From Escherichia coli (lineage in GTDB: Bacteria > Pseudomonadota > Gammaproteobacteria > Enterobacterales > Enterobacteriaceae), in assembly GCF_003334355.1 (NCBI RefSeq), contig NZ_QOWP01000002.1: a stretch of DNA of 64,000 nucleotides, one strand, 5' to 3'. Below, piece by piece: positions 23,872 to 31,848 of this stretch. The first letter of the stretch is position 1. Every line of letters begins with the position of its first letter. The notes beneath the pieces were generated by a model. That model worked only from the letters and a program-made list of their open reading frames with translations, ran no database searches and had not been told where the DNA came from. Made by a program: the position numbers and the translations under genes.

Positions 23872-26070
23872 TTACTGCTGTGGTTGTTGCTGAGTTGATT
23901 TTTGCAGGATGCTGCTGATGTCCATGCGCTGCGCATGACCCTGTGCCTGACTTTTCAGGACAAGCTCTGCATCAGCACGGGCATTGTCTCCTTGCTGTTG
24001 CTGGAACTGTCCGAGCAGTTTCAGCGCCTCACGGATATCAGATTTTTGCTGGCTATCGGCAGATGCGAGGATTTTCACAACATTTGCCGCAGCAACCTGA
24101 GCATCCGTCTGTGCCTGGAATGCTTTAACCTGAATGGCTGCCTGTTCGTTCTGCGCTTTCTGCAATTCAGCCTGACCAGCAAGAAGCTGACCTTGCGCTG
24201 CAACCATAGCCGGATCTGGCTGACTGGCCTGTTGTTGTTTCGCCTGTTCAACCATCTGCTGTTCTTCAGGCGTTCTCGGCTTGATAACGCCAGACAGAAG
24301 CAACTGATTGCGGTTGTATTCTTTAAGGTCGTCCATCCCTTCGCCGTCCATATTGTCGAGGATCATCGACGATACAAGGTCGTGTTTCGGCGTTCCGGGC
24401 GGGATAAGTGCCAGCATGGAAAGTAACGACTTAACCGTTGCGTCACGGCGAGTAGCGAACGACTGACCGACATCGACAGTCACTTCATAGTTACCCTGCG
24501 AAAGGTCGTTAAGCGCGATAACCTGCCCTGTCTGACGGTCAACCACTTCACCAGTCATCAGCGCCACGTCATCGCTGCCGTCCTCATTAACGATACGCAT
24601 CGGCGTATCACTGCCATAGACCTCACGCGCCATAGAAAGCCACACAACGCCAGCGCGACGCATGGATTTAGCCATGTTGTCCATGTAGATATAGGACTGC
24701 GTGTCCATCCGGTTAAAGATGCTATCAACGGTATCGGTGGCGACGTTGCTCGGCATGTTCTCAAGCTGCGACGCACCTGTAATTTGCTGAATAGCCGTTC
24801 CTGTGTACTGCAATAGCCCGGCAAGAGCAGGAGGCATTTGTGTCGGAGGTGTATAACTACTTACCTGAGCCTGCGCAGTAATATCGCCGTTTTTGTTTTT
24901 CAGACTGACCATCGGCAGGAACGCCGGGCGCTTTTTGTTGCGCTCCGCCCAATGAGTGGCGAGAGGACCAGGAATCATGTCAACATCAACTACAGGAATG
25001 CCATCACCGCCAGCCTGAGTGGCGTTATCTGCAATCATGGAAACCATCAGGTTCTCAAGACGCTGTGCATCCATCGCTTTTGCTGCGTGGCCTTCGATTC
25101 GCTCCTGATTATCAACAAATGAGCGACGACCATATACCGGGATGAGAGGAATATGTTCGCCCGGAATACGCTTCGGTTCTTCCAGCCATTCAGCTCCAGA
25201 CAGAAGACCGCAATAAACTCGGCGTTTCTTCACTGTCCGCTCACCGATCAGTTCGAATGCACCATCGGTTAGCTCGTCGACAACATCTTTGATTTGCTCT
25301 TCATCATAGATTGCCGTTTCTCCGCTAACAGGGTTGCGCCACGCCGTGAGCTTCACCTTCTCTATGCGAACTTCGTAGTAGCGTCCAACATAGATGGCAT
25401 CGGGCGTTGACCAGTCATATTGAGTGCCAGTGTCATCACGAGAAAGGCTTGCCGCGATGGAATCAGGGTATTCAGCCTCGAACGCTTTAGGCGTCATGGA
25501 GAACATTTCCATAGCCCACATAGCATCAGAGCGGTCATATTGCTTGCTGTCCTGATCGAAGAAGACGCATGTCGCTGGGTCGTAAACAGGAAGAAGGCTG
25601 ATGCGTCGCTGCTCGTTACTCGGATCCATTTCATCTTCGTAATCGGCACACATGCGGAAACAACCGAATCCGCCCGTTACAGCATCATCAAATGCGTTAT
25701 CACACGCTTCGCCACCGGATGTTTCCTGGTAGTCAGCGCGGAATTTGCCGTTCATCTTTTCGGCTAACGCTTCCGATGCCTTGTCATCCTTCGGCCTGAA
25801 TTTAACGCTGATGCGATTCTGTCGATACTCGCCAATGATGCGATCACATTCACGGGCAATCTTATTCAGTTCAAAGCGCGGGTAATGCTCAAACCTGCCT
25901 TCATCAAATGAGTAACCAGCGTTTGTGCTGCCTTCCCACTGTGCGCCGGATACCCGGACGAAACGTTGAGCCTCAATAATCTGCTCACGCATATCCTGCG
26001 TTGCTGACCAGGCATTATCAAAGTTGCACAGCACCTTGCGATGCCAGTCAGTCATCTTTTTTTCTGCCAT
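23872..26070 (-). CDS. Portal protein, P22 gp1-like (732 aa)
   Basis: Size; C-terminal Gln/Ala-rich barrel segment; motifs ...GEHIPLIPVYG... and ...KPRTPEEQQMVEQAKQQQ...DPAMVAAQGQLLAGQAELQKAQNEQ... comparable to P22 portal. Confidence 0.9.
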   Translation of the reverse strand: MAEKKMTDWHRKVLCNFDNAWSATQDMREQIIEAQRFVRVSGAQWEGSTNAGYSFDEGRFEHYPRFELNKIARECDRIIGEYRQNRISVKFRPKDDKASEALAEKMNGKFRADYQETSGGEACDNAFDDAVTGGFGCFRMCADYEDEMDPSNEQRRISLLPVYDPATCVFFDQDSKQYDRSDAMWAMEMFSMTPKAFEAEYPDSIAASLSRDDTGTQYDWSTPDAIYVGRYYEVRIEKVKLTAWRNPVSGETAIYDEEQIKDVVDELTDGAFELIGERTVKKRRVYCGLLSGAEWLEEPKRIPGEHIPLIPVYGRRSFVDNQERIEGHAAKAMDAQRLENLMVSMIADNATQAGGDGIPVVDVDMIPGPLATHWAERNKKRPAFLPMVSLKNKNGDITAQAQVSSYTPPTQMPPALAGLLQYTGTAIQQITGASQLENMPSNVATDTVDSIFNRMDTQSYIYMDNMAKSMRRAGVVWLSMAREVYGSDTPMRIVNEDGSDDVALMTGEVVDRQTGQVIALNDLSQGNYEVTVDVGQSFATRRDATVKSLLSMLALIPPGTPKHDLVSSMILDNMDGEGMDDLKEYNRNQLLLSGVIKPRTPEEQQMVEQAKQQQASQPDPAMVAAQGQLLAGQAELQKAQNEQAAIQVKAFQAQTDAQVAAANVVKILASADSQQKSDIREALKLLGQFQQQQGDNARADAELVLKSQAQGHAQRMDISSILQKSTQQQPQQ

Positions 26071-26071
26071 A

Positions 26072-27487
26072 TCAACCTACACCACAAGGAATTGAGTAAC
26101 TGGAATAGTCGGGTTGCGCAGCCGACTCCGGGCAATGCATACACATCATCAGCGCATCAGCCAGGTTAGGAGATGGAATACCGAGCTTCTGCTTCATTTC
26201 GACCTTAGTCATTAGCTCCAGCTTCCCGTTGTTATTGAATTTGCGCTGAATCTGCGTCAGTTCTGCAAACAGCTTCTCCAGCATATTCTCGCCTATCGCT
26301 TCTTTGTCGAAACTCAGCATGTCGTCGGGGTCTGCATACTCACCGTGAACAACCGCCCGATATGTCAGATACAGCCTGTCAGCCAGCGCGTAATAGAATT
26401 GCGCTCGCTTATTGCGGAATACATCGCCAATAGTGCGAACATTGTCGCCCTGTACGACTTCATCAGCCCATGCTCCGGCCTGATATGGCGCATCTTCATC
26501 GAATGGCGATTCGCTGCCCTTGAACATCGTGGCGGTGATTTTCTTGCCGGAGAACGCTTCCGTTGTCTGTCTGCGTAGCCCGGCACCAACACCATCACCA
26601 TCCCACAGGTAATGGTCAGCGCCGTCTTCAATCGCCAGCGAAGTAGCCCAGTCAGCACCCTCGTTGATGTCCATCAGCAGACCTTCGGCAATGCGCTTAA
26701 CTACCGAACCTTGACGCGATGCGTAACCTTTAGCATCTGGCCCTGTATCTGACGGGTCATGTGCAGAAACAACCGCGCCTTTCGCTTTCCATCCGAGTTT
26801 CTTGTGCGCATCGGTTGCGGCTTCAAGCCATTCACGTTTGATGATTGCCATATCACTTGCGCTTACCGGCTCACCAAGCCAGATGTGACGATACAGTGTC
26901 GGATTTCTGCGTTTACACTCTTCCATCTCCAGACGGAGAACTTCAGGAAAGTGCGGGTTGTCGGTGTAGTTCACCGTCAGCAGGCAAATATCATCGGGAG
27001 GATTTACAACGAATCGCTGATAGGTATCGTCGAGGATGTTCTTCGGGTTAAAGCTCACCCATATTTCGGAAAACGGCTTGCGGATGGTTGGGATCAGGAT
27101 ATCCCATGATTCCTTCGTTACCGCTTCCGCTTCTTCCACCCAGCAGATATCAATGCCTTCGAGCGATTTAATCTTCGTCGGGTTGTTTTTGATGCCGTAG
27201 AACATGAATTCAGCATTCGTTCCGAGATGACGGATCATTGAACGCTGAATTTCAAACTCAGCCGAATACCCTTCACGCTCGATGGTGTCTTCAAGCAACC
27301 GGATTACCGAATCGCTGATACTGTTTTGCAGTTCACGAGCACAGAGAATACGCACTGGCTGCCGACGCGCCGCTTCAACAAGCAGTCTCGCAATTGCCCA
27401 TGATTTACCGCTACCTCGACCGCCTTTGGCGACTTTGTAGCGATGCGCCTCAATGAACGGTTCAAAGATAGGATTAATCGAGGTCAT
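26072..27487 (-). CDS. Terminase large subunit (471 aa)
   Basis: Walker A (AKGGRGSGKSWAIARLL), conserved ...CWVEEAEAV... and C-terminal nuclease-type region; directly follows the small subunit. Confidence 0.9.
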   Translation of the reverse strand: MTSINPIFEPFIEAHRYKVAKGGRGSGKSWAIARLLVEAARRQPVRILCARELQNSISDSVIRLLEDTIEREGYSAEFEIQRSMIRHLGTNAEFMFYGIKNNPTKIKSLEGIDICWVEEAEAVTKESWDILIPTIRKPFSEIWVSFNPKNILDDTYQRFVVNPPDDICLLTVNYTDNPHFPEVLRLEMEECKRRNPTLYRHIWLGEPVSASDMAIIKREWLEAATDAHKKLGWKAKGAVVSAHDPSDTGPDAKGYASRQGSVVKRIAEGLLMDINEGADWATSLAIEDGADHYLWDGDGVGAGLRRQTTEAFSGKKITATMFKGSESPFDEDAPYQAGAWADEVVQGDNVRTIGDVFRNKRAQFYYALADRLYLTYRAVVHGEYADPDDMLSFDKEAIGENMLEKLFAELTQIQRKFNNNGKLELMTKVEMKQKLGIPSPNLADALMMCMHCPESAAQPDYSSYSIPCGVG

Positions 27488-27924
27488 TTTCCGAATAGAG
27501 TGCTCATCGGTGATGTTTCAATCTGGATTGCGCCGCCGTCTTTGCCTGTTAGCTCGTGATCAACCTTGTCGCGCCATTTATCCTTCTGTCGGTTCTTAAG
27601 CCAGAAGATGGCAGCGGTTGTATCAGGAGGGTAATACTTCTCAAGCGGAGTTTCGACAATTCTGTTTTCAATAACACGAATATCGATGTCTGGAGCCACG
27701 AAGCCCATAGCTCGTTGATAAAGACGATCACTAACTTCTGCATCAGCGACGGCCTTACCTTTTTTTATGGACTCCGAAAACTTAGGATAATCAAGCTTCC
27801 ACTTGTTAATAGTTGACTCACTGACTTCAAAGAAATCAGCAAGTTCTGCATCGGTGTAGCCCAGCAAGCACAGTTTGCGTGCCTGTTCGGCATACGCCTC
27901 TTGATACTTTGTTGGGCGTGCCAT
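27484..27924 (-). CDS. Terminase small subunit (146 aa)
   Basis: MARPTKYQEAYAEQARKLCLLGYTDAELADFFEVSESTINKWK... (HTH) immediately upstream of the large terminase. Confidence 0.8.
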   Translation of the reverse strand: MARPTKYQEAYAEQARKLCLLGYTDAELADFFEVSESTINKWKLDYPKFSESIKKGKAVADAEVSDRLYQRAMGFVAPDIDIRVIENRIVETPLEKYYPPDTTAAIFWLKNRQKDKWRDKVDHELTGKDGGAIQIETSPMSTLFGK

Positions 27925-27926
27925 GT

Positions 27927-28169
27927 TTATGCTCCGGTAGTGAACAGGTCTAACGCTTCCTTCGATTTACGCACCGCTTCGATAGTGCGGGTCGTGATAT
28001 CTGAGTTAGCGCCACCTGACTGGAAGTGAATTTTGAATAGCTCAAGCTTCAGCTCGTCAGTGCCAATGAATTGAAATGCTTCTTCTGCGGCTGCGTTCTG
28101 GTTCATGACCAGTTTGTAAATCTCTAACTGGAATTTCTGTTCTTCAGTCATGGGAATAATCTCTGCCAT
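27927..28169 (-). CDS. Hypothetical protein (80 aa) upstream of terminase
   Basis: ORF MAEIIPMTEEQKFQLEIYKLVMNQNAAAEEAFQF... tightly packed against the small terminase gene. Confidence 0.5.
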   Translation of the reverse strand: MAEIIPMTEEQKFQLEIYKLVMNQNAAAEEAFQFIGTDELKLELFKIHFQSGGANSDITTRTIEAVRKSKEALDLFTTGA

Positions 28170-28425
28170 TGTTGGCTCCGTTTATCCGTTAAAAGGGATA
28201 TCAGTTAAGTTATCCCGTGTAGGGTATAAGCCATTGTCGAGACCACTCATTGAATGGCCTCTGCAATAACCGATGTCTTTCCATCAGTCCGCCACCACAA
28301 AGAATCTTTTTTGCCATAAGGCAGGAGGTTCATCTTTCAGTGGCTGCCAGTGTTATTTCCCCACTTACTGGCTTGGGTTGTTTCGTGGTACTGCCGTAAT
28401 GCAAAAACTGGATTAACCTGCGAAA

Positions 28426-28956
28426 TCACACCATTCCGGGCAAATACATTTGCACTTCATTTGCCGCTCTCTCACGTGCAACATGAAGCAATCTTTTTCG
28501 CCCACCAACGCCCCACTTAGCCATTTGGCTTGCGCACTGGCTTATCGCTTTGGTTTCAGTATTGATGATGTGATCGATTCTATTCAGACGGGACATTGCG
28601 CCAACGCCGAGACGGACAACCGTTTTGAAAACTTCATAAACTTCGACTTCAAATTCCGGCTTAATCCATGCTGCATATCTGATTGCCAGAAGTTCAACCC
28701 CCCACACACCTGGTTCTGCACCACCTTTGATTATTTTAAGTGGTTGAATTTGTTCCAAAGTGCTTTTTTGCACTTTGGCCTCCAGTGCTTTTATGAAGCG
28801 TTTTATCTGCGCGCTACGCAAAAACTGGCTTGGACGCTGTTGCTCTGTAGCCTCTTCATTTGCAACTGCTGCTGCATGGAGATCGTTTAAGTTGTAGCGT
28901 CCATCCTCATCAACACGAACGGACACACCATTGACAATAACTGTTGGGTACTTCAT
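28426..28956 (-). CDS. KilA-N domain-like protein (176 aa)
   Basis: N-terminus MKYPTVIVNGVSVRVDEDGRYNLNDLHAAA... resembles the KilA-N/APSES DNA-binding fold; assigned from memory, not searched. Confidence 0.5.
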   Translation of the reverse strand: MKYPTVIVNGVSVRVDEDGRYNLNDLHAAAVANEEATEQQRPSQFLRSAQIKRFIKALEAKVQKSTLEQIQPLKIIKGGAEPGVWGVELLAIRYAAWIKPEFEVEVYEVFKTVVRLGVGAMSRLNRIDHIINTETKAISQCASQMAKWGVGGRKRLLHVARERAANEVQMYLPGMV

Positions 28957-29100
28957 CAGTGATTACCTTTTAGTGATGAACCTTGTCACACAGGATTCCG
29001 GCCCACAGAAAGGCACCGATCACCAAACCGGCATCCTCAAGGGTCATCCTGAAAGGTTCTGTGTTCAGAAGTCGCGCGTGTGAAGCGCGTTTGTTGCAGA

Positions 29101-29127
29101 TATAAAAAAGCCCCGCAAATGCGAGGC
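29101..29127 (-). terminator. Rho-independent terminator downstream of the lysis cassette
   Basis: Minus-strand hairpin AGCCTCGCAtttGCGGGGCT followed by TTTTTTAT. Confidence 0.55.
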
Positions 29128-29301
29128 TAAATCCTGGTATTTGTAATGACTGGCTCTTATCTCAACGCAGCCCCTTACCGCGCGCCAGATGCTCAATATC
29201 AAGCATCAGCAATGAGATGTTTAATCTGGATTCACTCCAGAAGTGATCACCACCCTGTCTACAGAGCCAGATGTGAAGGATGATGAGTAAAATTATCGCT
29301 A

Positions 29302-29769
29302 TCATTGAAGGCATTGCGTCCTGATGTATTCCTGAAGCGTTCTCAGTGCTGTTTGGTCGCGGATAATTCCGTCCCGGATATCGAGAACGTTTCGTCCAGC
29401 AACTGGAGAGAGTTCGACGGTGGCATCATTGCCCATGCCGGAGGCGCCGGAGGTTTCGGCTGAGGATGGCTCAGGGCATTTTCCTTTGACGAGCACCCTG
29501 CCACCATTATCAAGCTTGCGCCGAAGAGCATCATTTTCAGCTTTCGCATCAGCTAACTCCTTCGTGTATTTAGCATCGAGTGCATCAGCAGCACGCTGGC
29601 GTTGCTGCATGTCAGTAATGGTGGCGGCCGCCTGCTTCAGCTCACTGACTTTTTTATCGCGCTGCTCTTTGTAGGTCATGGCGTTATCACGGTAATGATT
29701 AACAGCCCATGACAGGCAGACGATGATGCAGATAACCAGAGCGGAGATAATCGCGGTTACTCTGCTCAT
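29302..29769 (-). CDS. Rz: i-spanin Rz (155 aa)
   Basis: [30 protein letters not shown]... is almost identical to lambda Rz as recalled. Confidence 0.92.
29343..29549 (-). CDS. Rz1: o-spanin Rz1 lipoprotein, embedded in Rz in the +1 frame
   Basis: Embedded ORF with signal peptide and lipobox (LIMVAGC) and proline-rich PPAPPAW segment, as in lambda Rz1. Confidence 0.8.
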
Positions 29770-30242
29770 ACCTCAATCTCTCTGACTGTTCCGCCAGCTT
29801 CTTTGAATTTTGCAATCAGGCTGTCAGCCTTATGCTCGAACTGGCCATAACCAGCCCCCGGCAACGAAGCCCAGATATTGCTGCAACGGTCGATTGCCTG
29901 ACGGATATCACCGCGATCAATCATCGGTAAAGCGCCACGCTCTTTAATCTGCTGCAATGCCACAGCGTCCTGACTTTTCGGAGAGAAATCTTTCAGGCCA
30001 AGTTGCTTACGATAGGCATCCCACCAACGGGAAAGAAGCTGGTAACGTCCGGCTGCTGTTGATTTGAGTTTGGGGTTTAGCGTGACAAGTTTGCGAGGGT
30101 GATCGGAGTAATCAGTGAATAGCTCTCCGCCAACAATGACGTCATAACCATGATTTCTGGTTTTCTGACGTCCGTTATCAGTTCCCTCTGACCACGCCAG
30201 CATATCGAGGAACGCCTTACGTTGATTATTGATTTCCACCAT
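29766..30242 (-). CDS. R: Endolysin R (lytic transglycosylase, 158 aa)
   Basis: [42 protein letters not shown]... essentially identical to lambda R as recalled. Confidence 0.95.
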
Positions 30243-30549
30243 CTTCTACTCCGGCTTTTTTAGCAGCGAAGCGTTTGATAAGCGAACCAATCGAGTCAGT
30301 ACCGATGTAGCCGATGAACACGCTCGTTATATAAGCGAGATTGCTACTTAGTCCGGCGAAGTCGAGAAGGTCACGAATGAACCAGGCGATAATGGCGCAC
30401 ATCGTTGCGTCGATTACTGTTTTTGTAAACGCACCGCCATTATATCTGCCGCGAAGGTACGCCATTGCAAACGCAAGGATTGCCCCGATGCCTTGTTCCT
30501 TTGCCGCGAGAATGGCGGCTAACAGGTCATGTTTTTCTGGCATCTTCAT
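30226..30549 (-). CDS. S: Holin S (107 aa, dual-start Met1-Lys2-Met3)
   Basis: [41 protein letters not shown]... essentially identical to lambda S as recalled. Confidence 0.95.
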
Positions 30550-30667
30550 GTCTTACCCCCAATAAGGGGATTTGCTCTATTTATTTAGGAATAAGGTCGA
30601 TTACTGATAGAACAAATCCAGGCTACTGTGTTTAGTAATCAGATTTGTTCGTGACCGATATGCACGG

Positions 30668-30706
30668 GCAAAACGGCAGGAGGTTGTTAGCGCGACCTCC
30701 TGCCAC
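30668..30706 (-). terminator. tR'-like terminator (end of 6S RNA) between Q and S
   Basis: Minus-strand hairpin GGCAGGAGGTcgcgctaacaACCTCCTGCC followed by GTTTTG; matches lambda tR' as recalled. Confidence 0.8.
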
Positions 30707-31146
30707 CCGCTTTCACGAAGATCATGTGTAGAAGGCCGCAGCATAACTATCACTGATGAGTTCAGGATAGCCAGTGGCACGGCTCAGTTTGGGTTGTGCT
30801 GTTGCTGGGCGGCGATGACGCCTGTACGCATTTGGTGATCCGGTTCTGCTTCCGGTATTCGCTTAATTCAGCACAACGGAAAGAGCACTGGCTAACCAGG
30901 CTCGCCGACTCTTCACGATTATCGACTCAATGCTCTTACCTGTTGTGCAGATATAAAAAATCCCGAAACCGTTATGCAGGCTCTAACTATTACCTGCGAA
31001 CTGTTTCTGGATTGCATTTTGCAGACCTCTCTGCCTGCGATGGTTGGAGTTCCAGACGATACGTCGAAGTGACCAACTAGGCGGAATCGGTAGTAAGCGC
31101 CGCCTCTTTTCATCTCACTACCACAACGAGCGAATTAACCCATCGT

Positions 31147-31182
31147 TGAGTCAAATTTACCCAATTTTATTCAAAAAGTCAA
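31147..31182 (-). promoter_or_regulatory. Late promoter pR' (with qut region) downstream of Q
   Basis: Minus-strand TTGACT -17 bp- TAAATT about 45 bp downstream of the Q stop, as in lambda pR'. Confidence 0.75.
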
Positions 31183-31224
31183 TATCATGCCGTAAAGATG
31201 TTGCCATCCGTGGCAATCATGCCG

Positions 31225-31848
31225 CTAACGTGTGACCGCATTCAAAATGTTGTCTGCGATTGACTCTTCTTTGTGGCATTGCACCACCAGAGCGTCATAC
31301 AGTGGCTTAACAGTGCGTGACCAGGTGGGTTGAGTAAGGTTTGGGATTAGCATCGTTACAGCGCGATATGCGGCGCTTGCTGGCATTCTTGAATAGCCGA
31401 CACCTTTGCATCTTCCGCATTCTTTCTCAACAACTCTCCCCCACAGCTCTGTTTTGACAATATCGACCGCACGGCCTGTACCGTGGCAATCTCTGCATCT
31501 TGCACCCGGCGTCGCGGCACTACGGCAATAATCCGCATAAGCGAATGTTGCGAGAACTTGCAGTACCTTTGCCTTAGTATTTCCTTCAAGCTTTGCCACA
31601 CCACGGTATTTCCCCGATACCTTGTGTGCAAATTGCATCAGATAGTTGATAGCCTTTTGTTTGTCGTTCTGGCTGAGTTCGTGCTTACCGCAGAATGCAG
31701 CCATACCGAATCCGGCTTGTGATTGCGCCATCCCCATAGCAGCCATCACATCAGTACCGGAAAGAGAATCAGAAGCCGTGGCCCGTGGTGAGTCGCTCAT
31801 CATCGGGCTTTTTGGCGAATGAAATTTAGCTACGCTTTCGAGTCTCAT
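31225..31848 (-). CDS. Q: Late antiterminator Q (207 aa)
   Basis: MRLESVAKFHSPKSPMMSDSPRATASDSLSGTDVMAAMG... with zinc-binding CRDCHGTG...CGRCKG; near-identical to lambda Q as recalled. Confidence 0.95.
   Translation of the reverse strand: MRLESVAKFHSPKSPMMSDSPRATASDSLSGTDVMAAMGMAQSQAGFGMAAFCGKHELSQNDKQKAINYLMQFAHKVSGKYRGVAKLEGNTKAKVLQVLATFAYADYCRSAATPGARCRDCHGTGRAVDIVKTELWGRVVEKECGRCKGVGYSRMPASAAYRAVTMLIPNLTQPTWSRTVKPLYDALVVQCHKEESIADNILNAVTR

Follow-up and report, generated by a model that had tools for sequence, protein, structure and literature searches.

Structured RNAs in phage operons

Several described systems bear on the element reported here, which lies in a 256-bp gap (28425-28170) between a KilA-N domain gene and a DUF2560 gene of a P22-like prophage, in a 64,000-nucleotide stretch of Escherichia coli DNA (assembly GCF_003334355.1, contig NZ_QOWP01000002.1). 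This whole stretch is called the window, and positions refer to it unless another sequence is named. The closest relative is Proteo-phage-1 (RF03044), a candidate structured RNA motif attributed to Weinberg et al. 2017 (PMC5737381), although the main text of that paper does not mention it. Among the papers searched, neither the name 'Proteo-phage-1' nor the core sequence was found. To our knowledge the motif is one of many orphans among structured RNAs, known from comparative genomics only, with neither a function nor an experimental system.

The late leader of phage lambda has the order pR', 6S RNA, tR', and the small RNA (sRNA) StxS of Stx phages derives from it. In Pseudomonas phages such as phiAH14a a relative of our element occupies this same slot, between a Q-position gene and the holin gene, with a promoter and terminators around it. 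The element of the window differs in that it follows the lysis genes, the pR' leader running from 31182-31154 onward, and it has no sequence relation to the lambda leader. The putL and putR sites of phage HK022 resemble it as structured phage RNAs without a dedicated open reading frame (ORF) on the sense strand of a long operon. They possess two or more stem-loops (about 70 nt with two stems, near an early promoter; PMC9378689), and full-length Proteo-phage-1 likewise has two hairpins, one base apart. The put sites are promoter-proximal in the early operons, whereas our element lies 2.8 kb into a late operon. HK022 carries the element described here besides its put sites. When HK022 26000-40751, a segment that by the published positions (PMC9378689) ought to include both of these sites, was scanned permissively with Rfam (E up to 10), Proteo-phage-1 was not matched there. 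Finally, phage L, Sf6 and BTP1 carry tRNA genes in their late leaders (PMC8022706). These too are non-coding RNAs in a late transcript without a known promoter of their own, but ARAGORN and the Rfam tRNA model found neither tRNA nor tmRNA in the gap of the window.

We propose, with a probability of roughly 0.6, that 28399-28272 is a self-contained structured RNA of about 128 nt, a short form of Proteo-phage-1, that acts autonomously after being made as part of the late transcript. The support for this consists of conservation and covariation; the RNA was identified computationally and its mechanism is one that we infer. What is new here is a variant, scoring below threshold and found in model phages, of an RNA family that has been described but not characterised.

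Conservation and modules of the gap

The sequence-only reading had regarded 28170-28425 as a gap without a credible ORF and had named three things that it could contain: a small RNA, a late promoter or elements of the packaging site. The first point was borne out, since the minus-strand ORFs there encode only 30 and 35 amino acids (aa). The gap is nevertheless conserved: about 200 phage records match 228 of its 256 bases with 93-99% identity, in a block that runs from 28399/28397 to 28170. The block occurs in podoviruses (P22, BTP1, L, HK620, CUS-3, epsilon34, Sf101) and in siphoviruses (HK022, HK97, HK446, mEp235, mEpX1/2), whose flanking genes differ. Of 5426 complete E. coli genomes, 1064 (about 20%) contain at least 80% of the gap, with no PGAP annotation over it, and none of the records examined had an RNA or regulatory annotation over the block. 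Judged from these matches, the conservation is far beyond chance.

Homology between phages breaks at fixed points, which split the gap into three modules:

28399-28272, minus strand: module 1, predicted structured RNA of about 128 nt, in all phages with the block
28384-28342, minus strand: pseudoknot domain of module 1, ending in AGCC, as matched by covariance model R1 (see below)
28344-28291, minus strand: hairpin H3 of module 1, in three tiers, GCCACU/GGUGGC, AAAGA/UCUUU and UGCC/GGCA
28293-28272, minus strand: 3' domain of module 1, GGCGGAC (28293-28287) followed by hairpin H4, GAUG-GAAAGA-CAUC (28285-28272)
28261-28239, minus strand: module 2, predicted hairpin GAGGCCA-UUCAAUGAG-UGGUCUC without a U-tract
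28248-28181, minus strand: module 3, leader of the DUF2560 gene, with hairpin GGGAUA...UAUCCC and UUUU at 28216-28191
28317-28210, minus strand: 35-aa ORF within the block (P22 'orf25'; N-terminal part of 'orf118' of ST64T and L)

Similarity begins at 28399/28397 and in 36 of 114 loci stops exactly at 28272, the last base of H4. Module 2 was found in only some of the phages with module 1; in P22 a change of U to C in its hairpin turns a G.U pair into G-C.

Relationship to Proteo-phage-1

A permissive Rfam scan of the gap gave a match of RF03044 to the sense strand of module 1 (28413-28342; 21.7 bits, E = 1.2). P22, HK022, ES18 and two other enteric loci likewise gave no RF03044 match at gathering level, and annotation by Rfam misses every copy of P22, HK022 and HK620 that was tested. 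The window stays below the threshold because the first hairpin of the family is absent. This hairpin (GCCaGG...CCuGG) lies one base 5' of stem H2 in full-length members and was not found in the window, where the sequence 5' of 28377 varies between enteric contexts and forms no conserved helix. It is also missing at loci L158, L133, L143/144, L157 and L193. While full-length members reach 72-84 bits, members without hairpin 1 (L158, L133, L193, L203 and L157) score 28-35 bits, so the Rfam threshold systematically loses the short form.

The relationship was also seen with other searches. A pattern of two strings, AAGCCNGNNAGTG ... AACACNGGCAGCC, retrieved the enteric block together with GC-rich viral contigs that score 72-84 bits with RF03044. 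A second scan, and another of species-representative genomes, added many further members, with hosts that include many Pseudomonas species, Stutzerimonas, Shimwellia, Tahibacter, Acidithiobacillus and Burkholderia. A covariance model of hairpin 2 plus tail, built from 16 non-enteric sequences only (model R1), was then run on both strands of the window. It matched 28384-28342 on the minus strand with 29.5 bits (E about 8e-7, the E-values being rough because they come from a shortened calibration); the next best match had 12.6 bits, and no other match in the 64 kb had E < 0.05.

Proteo-phage-1 and the element of the window share the hairpin-2 loop A-AGCCNG-NN-AGUG on a covarying stem, followed by an A-rich linker and the 3' tail AAC-N-CNGGCAGCC, and both lie in sense orientation in phages or prophages of Proteobacteria. 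The invariant tail AAC-N-CCGGCAGCC reads AAAUAACACUGGCAGCC at 28358-28342 of the window, and its sole difference, C to U, is complementary to a change of G to A in the loop. The window differs from RF03044 not only in lacking the 5' hairpin 1 but also in its hairpin-2 stem, which has just 4 bp and abuts the loop directly, and in one pseudoknot pair, which is A-U instead of G-C. The Rfam model comprises 82 nt, whereas the conserved unit described here is about 90 nt longer (H3, GGCNGAC and the GAAAGA hairpin), and the loop-tail pseudoknot is missing from the structure line of RF03044. Module 1 is described here as a predicted minimal, trimmed enteric form of a Proteo-phage-1 unit that consists of pseudoknot, H3, GGCGGAC and H4.

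Structure and covariation

The pseudoknot of the window is predicted to be of the H type, CCCA-AGCCAGUAAG-UGGG ... CUGGCAGCC. Its stem H2 (CCCA/UGGG) pairs 28377-28374 with 28363-28360, and in the loop AGCCAGUAAG the bases GCCAG (28372-28368) pair with CUGGC (28350-28346) across the A-rich linker. In H3, ACCUCC (28329-28324), the sequence of the 16S rRNA 3' end, faces an A-run in an internal loop. The sense strand folds more stably than its shuffles (z = -3.1 for the whole gap, -3.41 for module 1); the antisense of the gap, with z = -1.6, does not stand out.

For H2 we found 28 different complementary stems among 83 distinct sequences. MAFFT had mis-registered the H2 stems over all subtypes, and the alignment was rebuilt from one register, with the remaining sequences placed by the covariance model. 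In this model-fitted alignment, which leans towards structure, five of eight pairs were changed on both sides, and covariation was 0.251 compared with 0.074 in shuffled alignments (none of 500 reached the observed value) and at most 0.071 in slid controls. In most members the single pseudoknot pair that the search pattern leaves free is G-C; A-U takes its place in the enteric group and with five further H2 stems unrelated to the enteric one. The free pair is Watson-Crick in 90% of the matches with an H2 stem of at least 5 bp as against 38% of those without a stem. Presence or absence of the stem was chosen as the contrast for this pair; degenerate scans would bring about 50 chance matches, and the stemless matches are presumably of this kind.

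The remainder of module 1 could be compared with locus L158, a diverged relative of the same genomic context (Rz, Bro/KilA-like gene, nuclease gene, RNA, 78-aa ORF, terS, terL). The architecture predicted for H3 is identical in both. Between L158 and the window every tier of H3, and the H4 stem as well, stays paired through eight compensatory pairs; the A-run, the internal loop with ACCUCC, GGCGGAC and the GARAGA loop are constant. Across the family, GGCNGAC with a hairpin carrying a G(A/G)(A/G)AGA loop was found 3' of the pseudoknot at 135 of 187 distinct loci, compared with 2 of 187 upstream controls. H4 has at least nine different complementary stems under a loop of the constant GAAAGA type, and the 3' domain is common to the copies in Pseudomonas phages and chromosomes. 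These compensatory changes support the predicted helices of module 1.

Genomic context of the family

In phiAH14a (L241, NC_074659.1) the RNA (about 200 nt) is part of the gene order NinG, Q-position gene, promoter (TTGACA/AATTAT), terminator 1, small ORF, RNA, terminator 2, holin, terS, terL. Most Pseudomonas-type contigs show such a terminator-RNA-terminator unit in the part of the late leader that separates the Q-position gene from the holin gene, and no sigma-70 promoter was seen in the short spacer between terminator and RNA in the Pseudomonas phages. Elsewhere the RNA lies directly 5' of terS-terL (L133, L143/144, L193, L158) or, in one subgroup (L091, L136, L139, L147), upstream of recombination genes. 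At L010 and L156 it has tRNA genes as neighbours, at L010 (2862-3008) two of them within about 120 nt. The gene on its 3' side may be that for DUF2560, Gp49, holin (Pseudomonas phages) or TerS, a recombination gene, or pid on the opposite strand (P22 and BTP1). In all these places the RNA is co-oriented with the late or preceding genes and a promoter of its own is not evident; as far as gene order tells, it is independent of the identity of the gene that follows.

Several chromosomes of the Pseudomonas fluorescens group carry a copy (41-54 bits) 15-45 nt after a Cys-rich metallothionein-like gene (L264, 3160-3360; also L265, L289, L306, L315 and L328). This locus is not part of a prophage and is syntenic across species. 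The copy ends in H4 with its GAAAGA loop and a U-run, after which REP-like repeats follow. Its neighbours, read from ORF translations, look like stress genes (ferritin-like, KGG-repeat, Mn-catalase-like).

Some further observations concern individual members. In P22 (L003, AF217253, 1690-2320) and BTP1 (389225-389539) the reverse-strand gene pid ('P22 instigator of dgo expression') and a bidirectional terminator lie between the block and ORF80, so late transcription must cross an opposing gene just after the RNA. The phiAH14a 'hypothetical protein' gp55, annotated on the reverse strand at 4271-4801 over the promoter, both terminators and the RNA, is probably a spurious ORF call. L010 gave a weak second, partial R1 match on the opposite strand (2120-2154). 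The core of the enteric block (about 45 nt compared) was also present in metagenome-assembled contigs labelled as Cellvibrionaceae, Collinsella, Bacillota and Nanosynbacter (L243, L260, L286, L311, L317), which probably reflects contamination or mis-binning with E. coli phage sequence and not true hosts.

Position in the late operon and proposed mode of action

The element lies on the minus strand, between the lysis genes and the packaging genes:

31848-31225, minus strand: Q
31182-31154, minus strand: pR'-like promoter directly after Q, TTGACT-17-TAAATT (sigma-70 scan)
30549-30226, minus strand: holin gene
30242-29766, minus strand: endolysin gene
29769-29302, minus strand: Rz with Rz1 embedded (ORF list, PHROG match)
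29301-27927, minus strand: the interval studied here
28956-28426, minus strand: KilA-N domain gene, 176 aa (Pfam PF04383, 2e-17; phrog_129, 1e-60)
28425-28170: the 256-bp gap
28169-27927, minus strand: DUF2560 gene, 80 aa (P22 ORF80, HK620 hkbM; phrog_571, 2e-41)
27924-27484, minus strand: terS
27487-26072, minus strand: terL
26070-23872, minus strand: portal gene

In this arrangement the RNA would be made as an internal part of the late message that starts at the pR'-like promoter after Q, and Q antitermination would carry the transcript through the terminator near Rz. We infer this from gene order and from the biology of lambda and P22. The Q gene of the window looks, by eye, essentially identical to lambda Q, and we take it to be so. 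In module 1 of the window there is no promoter and after it no strong terminator. Once transcribed, the RNA would fold into the H-type pseudoknot, the long hairpin showing ACCUCC, the GGCGGAC segment and the hairpin with the GAAAGA loop. Processing would probably free it from the late message, much as is presumed for the tRNA genes that other phages have here, and the released RNA would bind a conserved host component late in infection. It is probably no controller of the particular gene that happens to lie next to it.

An explanation of this kind is favoured by the modularity of the block, by the copies bounded by terminators, by the neighbourhood of tRNA genes and by the near-invariance of the loops across bacterial classes; between Pseudomonas and E. 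coli phages the pseudoknot loop and the 3' tail hardly change. If there is a functional RNA at all, we see an even chance that it is trans-acting or stable; a cis element through which the mRNA of the downstream packaging genes is processed or stabilised would be a possible but less probable form, and something else again a less probable one still. Our favoured ranking puts an autonomous RNA first, cis processing or stability second and put-like antitermination third. As a tentative extension, a single family of autonomous RNA, with a pseudoknot 5' domain and a GGCNGAC/GAAAGA-hairpin 3' domain, might span the late operons of classical lambdoid phages (P22, HK97, HK022, HK620), the leaders of late transcription in Pseudomonas phages and the Pseudomonas stress locus. 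Once released in the phages, the RNA might work in trans to favour virion production through some conserved machine of the host, for which RNA polymerase, the ribosome or a global regulator that binds RNA would be candidates.

Several points weigh against the autonomous RNA. The 21.7 bits of the window lie below the RF03044 gathering threshold of 42 bits. Four of the five pseudoknot pairs are fixed by the search pattern and hence uninformative, and about seven enteric variants have an A.C mismatch in the pseudoknot. The enteric block is so uniform that nearly all covariation stems from a few outgroups (L158, Pseudomonas, Acidithiobacillus and others), and enteric conservation taken alone could be explained by recent spread. 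ES18 retains just the first 50 nt of the block and lambda was in none of the match lists, so the element is dispensable for a lambdoid phage and must be accessory. Lastly, the annotation of the BTP1 lysogen by differential RNA sequencing lists eight prophage sRNAs, none of them in the rha-pid interval (PMC6333337, S2 table), and it is this interval that holds the block. The list argues against a stand-alone sRNA of the lysogen and not against a product of the late transcript; it fits production from the late message only.

The finding has some consequences beyond this locus. Because the trimmed Proteo-phage-1 is present in P22, BTP1, L, HK97, HK022 and HK620 and in about one fifth of E. coli genomes, the family is now available in genetically tractable phages, for which pull-downs, induction time-courses, deletions and compensatory mutants are routine. 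The enteric form falls under the Rfam threshold and small ORFs have been placed on it, just as a reverse-strand ORF has been placed over the relative in phiAH14a, which amounts to a gap in annotation. The motif is enlarged by a probable loop-tail pseudoknot and a conserved 3' domain. The copy in the Pseudomonas stress cluster argues for a general RNA function borrowed by phages and not for a phage-specific DNA site. If it is true that the RNA acts in trans, it would be a new class of phage-encoded regulatory RNA that went unnoticed in the best-studied temperate phages.

Alternative explanations

Among the alternatives the one that survives best, unlikely as we consider it, is that the block acts in cis as a site of processing or stability or controls translation of the downstream gene, for example by sequestering a Shine-Dalgarno sequence with the ACCUCC loop. 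The block always lies between cistrons in sense orientation, H3, a long hairpin with interruptions, presents an ACCUCC that resembles an anti-Shine-Dalgarno sequence, and modules 2 and 3 form the leader of the DUF2560 gene. The Shine-Dalgarno sequence of that gene is GGAG (28179-28176), however, and merely 4 nt (CUCC with GGAG) could pair there; moreover, the downstream genes and the distances to them vary widely. A simple stabilising hairpin would also need no pseudoknot loops that are invariant across bacterial classes.

Alternatively, the block might have no function and be a 'linker' of shared sequence or a gene remnant (the N-terminus of an orf118-like gene), held nearly identical by recombination of lambdoid phages at this place, or else be the target of a homing endonuclease. 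The mosaic breakpoints on both sides of the block are sharp, genes for HNH and GIY-YIG nucleases occupy the adjoining slot in some phages, and the enteric sequences are too similar to tell purifying selection from recent spread. This reading would not explain why the relatives in L158, the Pseudomonas phages and chromosomes and Acidithiobacillus keep their helices by compensation although their primary sequences have diverged. The disruption of the ORF among relatives (see below) also counts against it, and we think it quite unlikely.

The ORFs that annotators have called on the block (P22 orf25, ST64T orf118) could be taken to favour such a reading. The ATG at 28317 is the start used for P22 orf25 and for orf118 of ST64T and L, and a note in the epsilon34 annotation reads 'similar to N-terminus of orf118'. 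The 35-aa ORF of the window belongs to no PHROG family and has no Shine-Dalgarno sequence, the sequence upstream being CCUCCUGCCUU. Among relatives the reading frame is ended by an early stop (P22), fused in frame to DUF2560 (L), given another C-terminus (L039) or, in L158, shifted across the conserved GGCGGAC while bases and helices are kept; the ORFs on the block have 27, 35, 45 or 118 aa in different phages. Both this ORF and one of 28 aa were rejected as genes, having no family and no ribosome-binding site and being broken or frame-shifted in relatives. These small ORF annotations cover the same bases as the RNA block, and P22 orf25 and ST64T/L orf118 are best read as annotation artefacts over a predicted RNA element. 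Derivation from the 3' end of rha was rejected as well: the P22 block begins at the stop codon of rha and not within the gene, and in phage L it directly follows Rz without any cargo gene.

A third possibility is a cis-acting leader of the packaging and morphogenesis genes which, like put, modifies the elongating polymerase and carries it past the terminators of cargo genes. Members of the family head long operons, either after the Q-position gene and before the terminator and holin gene of Pseudomonas phages or 5' of terS-terL elsewhere; the block of P22 and BTP1 comes ahead of the pid terminator. Loops as invariant as these point to a conserved machine as the binding partner, and the roles of terminators within P22-like late operons are described as unknown (PMC8022706). 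These enteric phages already have antitermination by Q or gp23, however, and in the window the element is 2.8 kb away from the promoter. In the Pseudomonas phages it lies 3' of the first terminator, where it could be of no help, and the Pseudomonas chromosomal copy has its own terminator and no operon behind it. As the putL and putR sites of HK022 showed no similarity to the family in the Rfam scan either, we regard such a leader as very unlikely.

The late promoter and the packaging-site elements that the sequence-only reading had considered for the gap found no support. It might be thought suggestive that the block is just 5' of the terminase genes and that family members often lie within 1 kb of terS. 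However, a sigma-70 scan (-35 and -10 hexamers with a spacing of 16-18 bp) found no promoter in 28170-28425 on either strand. Over 4 kb it returned five sites, as many as expected from shuffles and none of them in the gap, the sole good promoter on the late strand being the pR'-like site. P22-like late operons are described with a single promoter and the pac site inside gene 3 (PMC8022706). Headful phages (P22, L, HK620) and cos phages (HK022, HK97, a phage of the lambda-Nu1 type), with unrelated terminases, all have the block, which is about 780 bp from the genome end in HK022 and recurs at a chromosomal locus outside any phage. A promoter, pac or cos element is therefore extremely improbable. 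As to the earlier observation, its coordinates were right and it is confirmed in part: of the contents proposed for the gap, an RNA is supported by the fold of the sense strand, the compensatory helices and the relationship to RF03044.

The lysis-to-packaging interval and other features

The interval was correctly said to contain a KilA-N-like gene and an 80-aa ORF and to be variable among related phages. On the minus strand the order is Rz, 50-aa ORF, intrinsic terminator, 25-aa ORF, KilA-N gene, gap, DUF2560 gene, terS. The phages closest to the 2.4-kb junction are the P22-like podoviruses phiv205-1, HK620, CUS-3 and UPF_BP1, but no phage record covered 80% or more of it, from which we conclude that the interval is a mosaic. 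In relatives the slot holds differing cargo, namely Rha, hkbL, HNH and GIY-YIG nucleases, Gp49, a NucA-like nuclease and, on the opposite strand, pid. A homologue of the KilA-N gene is annotated in UPF_BP1, and hkbK of HK620 is another KilA-N gene in this slot. The 80-aa gene has 96-98% DNA identity to HK620 hkbM and P22 ORF80; the HK620 counterpart is annotated as 'DUF2560 family protein', and the RefSeq annotation supports the UPF_BP1 copy likewise. A DUF2560 homologue of BTP1, STMMW_03761, has been seen by proteomics (PMC6333337, supplement). KilA-N and DUF2560 genes are ordinary cargo of this variable slot, and the stretch on the Rz side of them is likewise unremarkable.

The stretch between Rz and the KilA-N gene (28957-29301) had been taken as non-coding as well, but proved to be occupied for the most part:

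29314-29162, minus strand: 50-aa ORF with hydrophobic N-terminus (phrog_11822, full-length, 3.9e-38)
29128-29101, minus strand: intrinsic terminator, AGCCTCGCATTTGCGGGGCT followed by TTTTTT, stem at 29128-29109 (terminator scan)
29047-28970, minus strand: hydrophobic 25-aa ORF, MTLEDAGLVIGAFLWAGILCDKVHH (translation; comparison with UPF_BP1)

The 50-aa ORF overlaps the stop codon of Rz and fills the first third of the stretch. Its counterpart is annotated as gp58 in phage mEp460, and the predicted product may be a small membrane protein that belongs to the lysis cassette and has been overlooked. Since the ORF is situated between Rz and the terminator, the latter closes a unit of Rz plus ORF50 and not Rz itself. 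The scan gave the terminator a stem of eight pairs, six of them G-C, and a loop of 4 nt; a weaker plus-strand hairpin with a T-rich tail adjoins it (29073-29089). The 25-aa ORF is just 5' of the KilA-N gene, a 54-aa version is annotated in UPF_BP1, and the common part is conserved at the protein level. As regards the search for RNA families in both of the supposedly non-coding stretches, the permissive Rfam scan was productive for 28170-28425, with the sub-threshold Proteo-phage-1 match, and not for 28957-29301. There the matches at 29050-29223 (asX2, RcsR1, PrrF, AbsR28, anti-hemB) all fell over the terminator hairpin, far below their gathering scores, and were rejected.

Module 3 also occurs by itself, in Stx2 and O157 prophages (L239, Stx2a_WGPS6, 2501-2586), where it comes right after an hkbL-like gene and has no DUF2560 gene downstream, and more than a thousand other E. 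coli genomes carry it. This conserved non-coding segment is mobile in its own right. The window as a whole pairs a late switch of the lambda type (Q and the pR'-like promoter) with a P22-like morphogenesis module of podoviruses. The sole match at Rfam gathering level or with ARAGORN in the 64 kb was a tRNA-Arg gene (anticodon CCT; 7776-7850, plus strand), which may mark the attachment site of the prophage.

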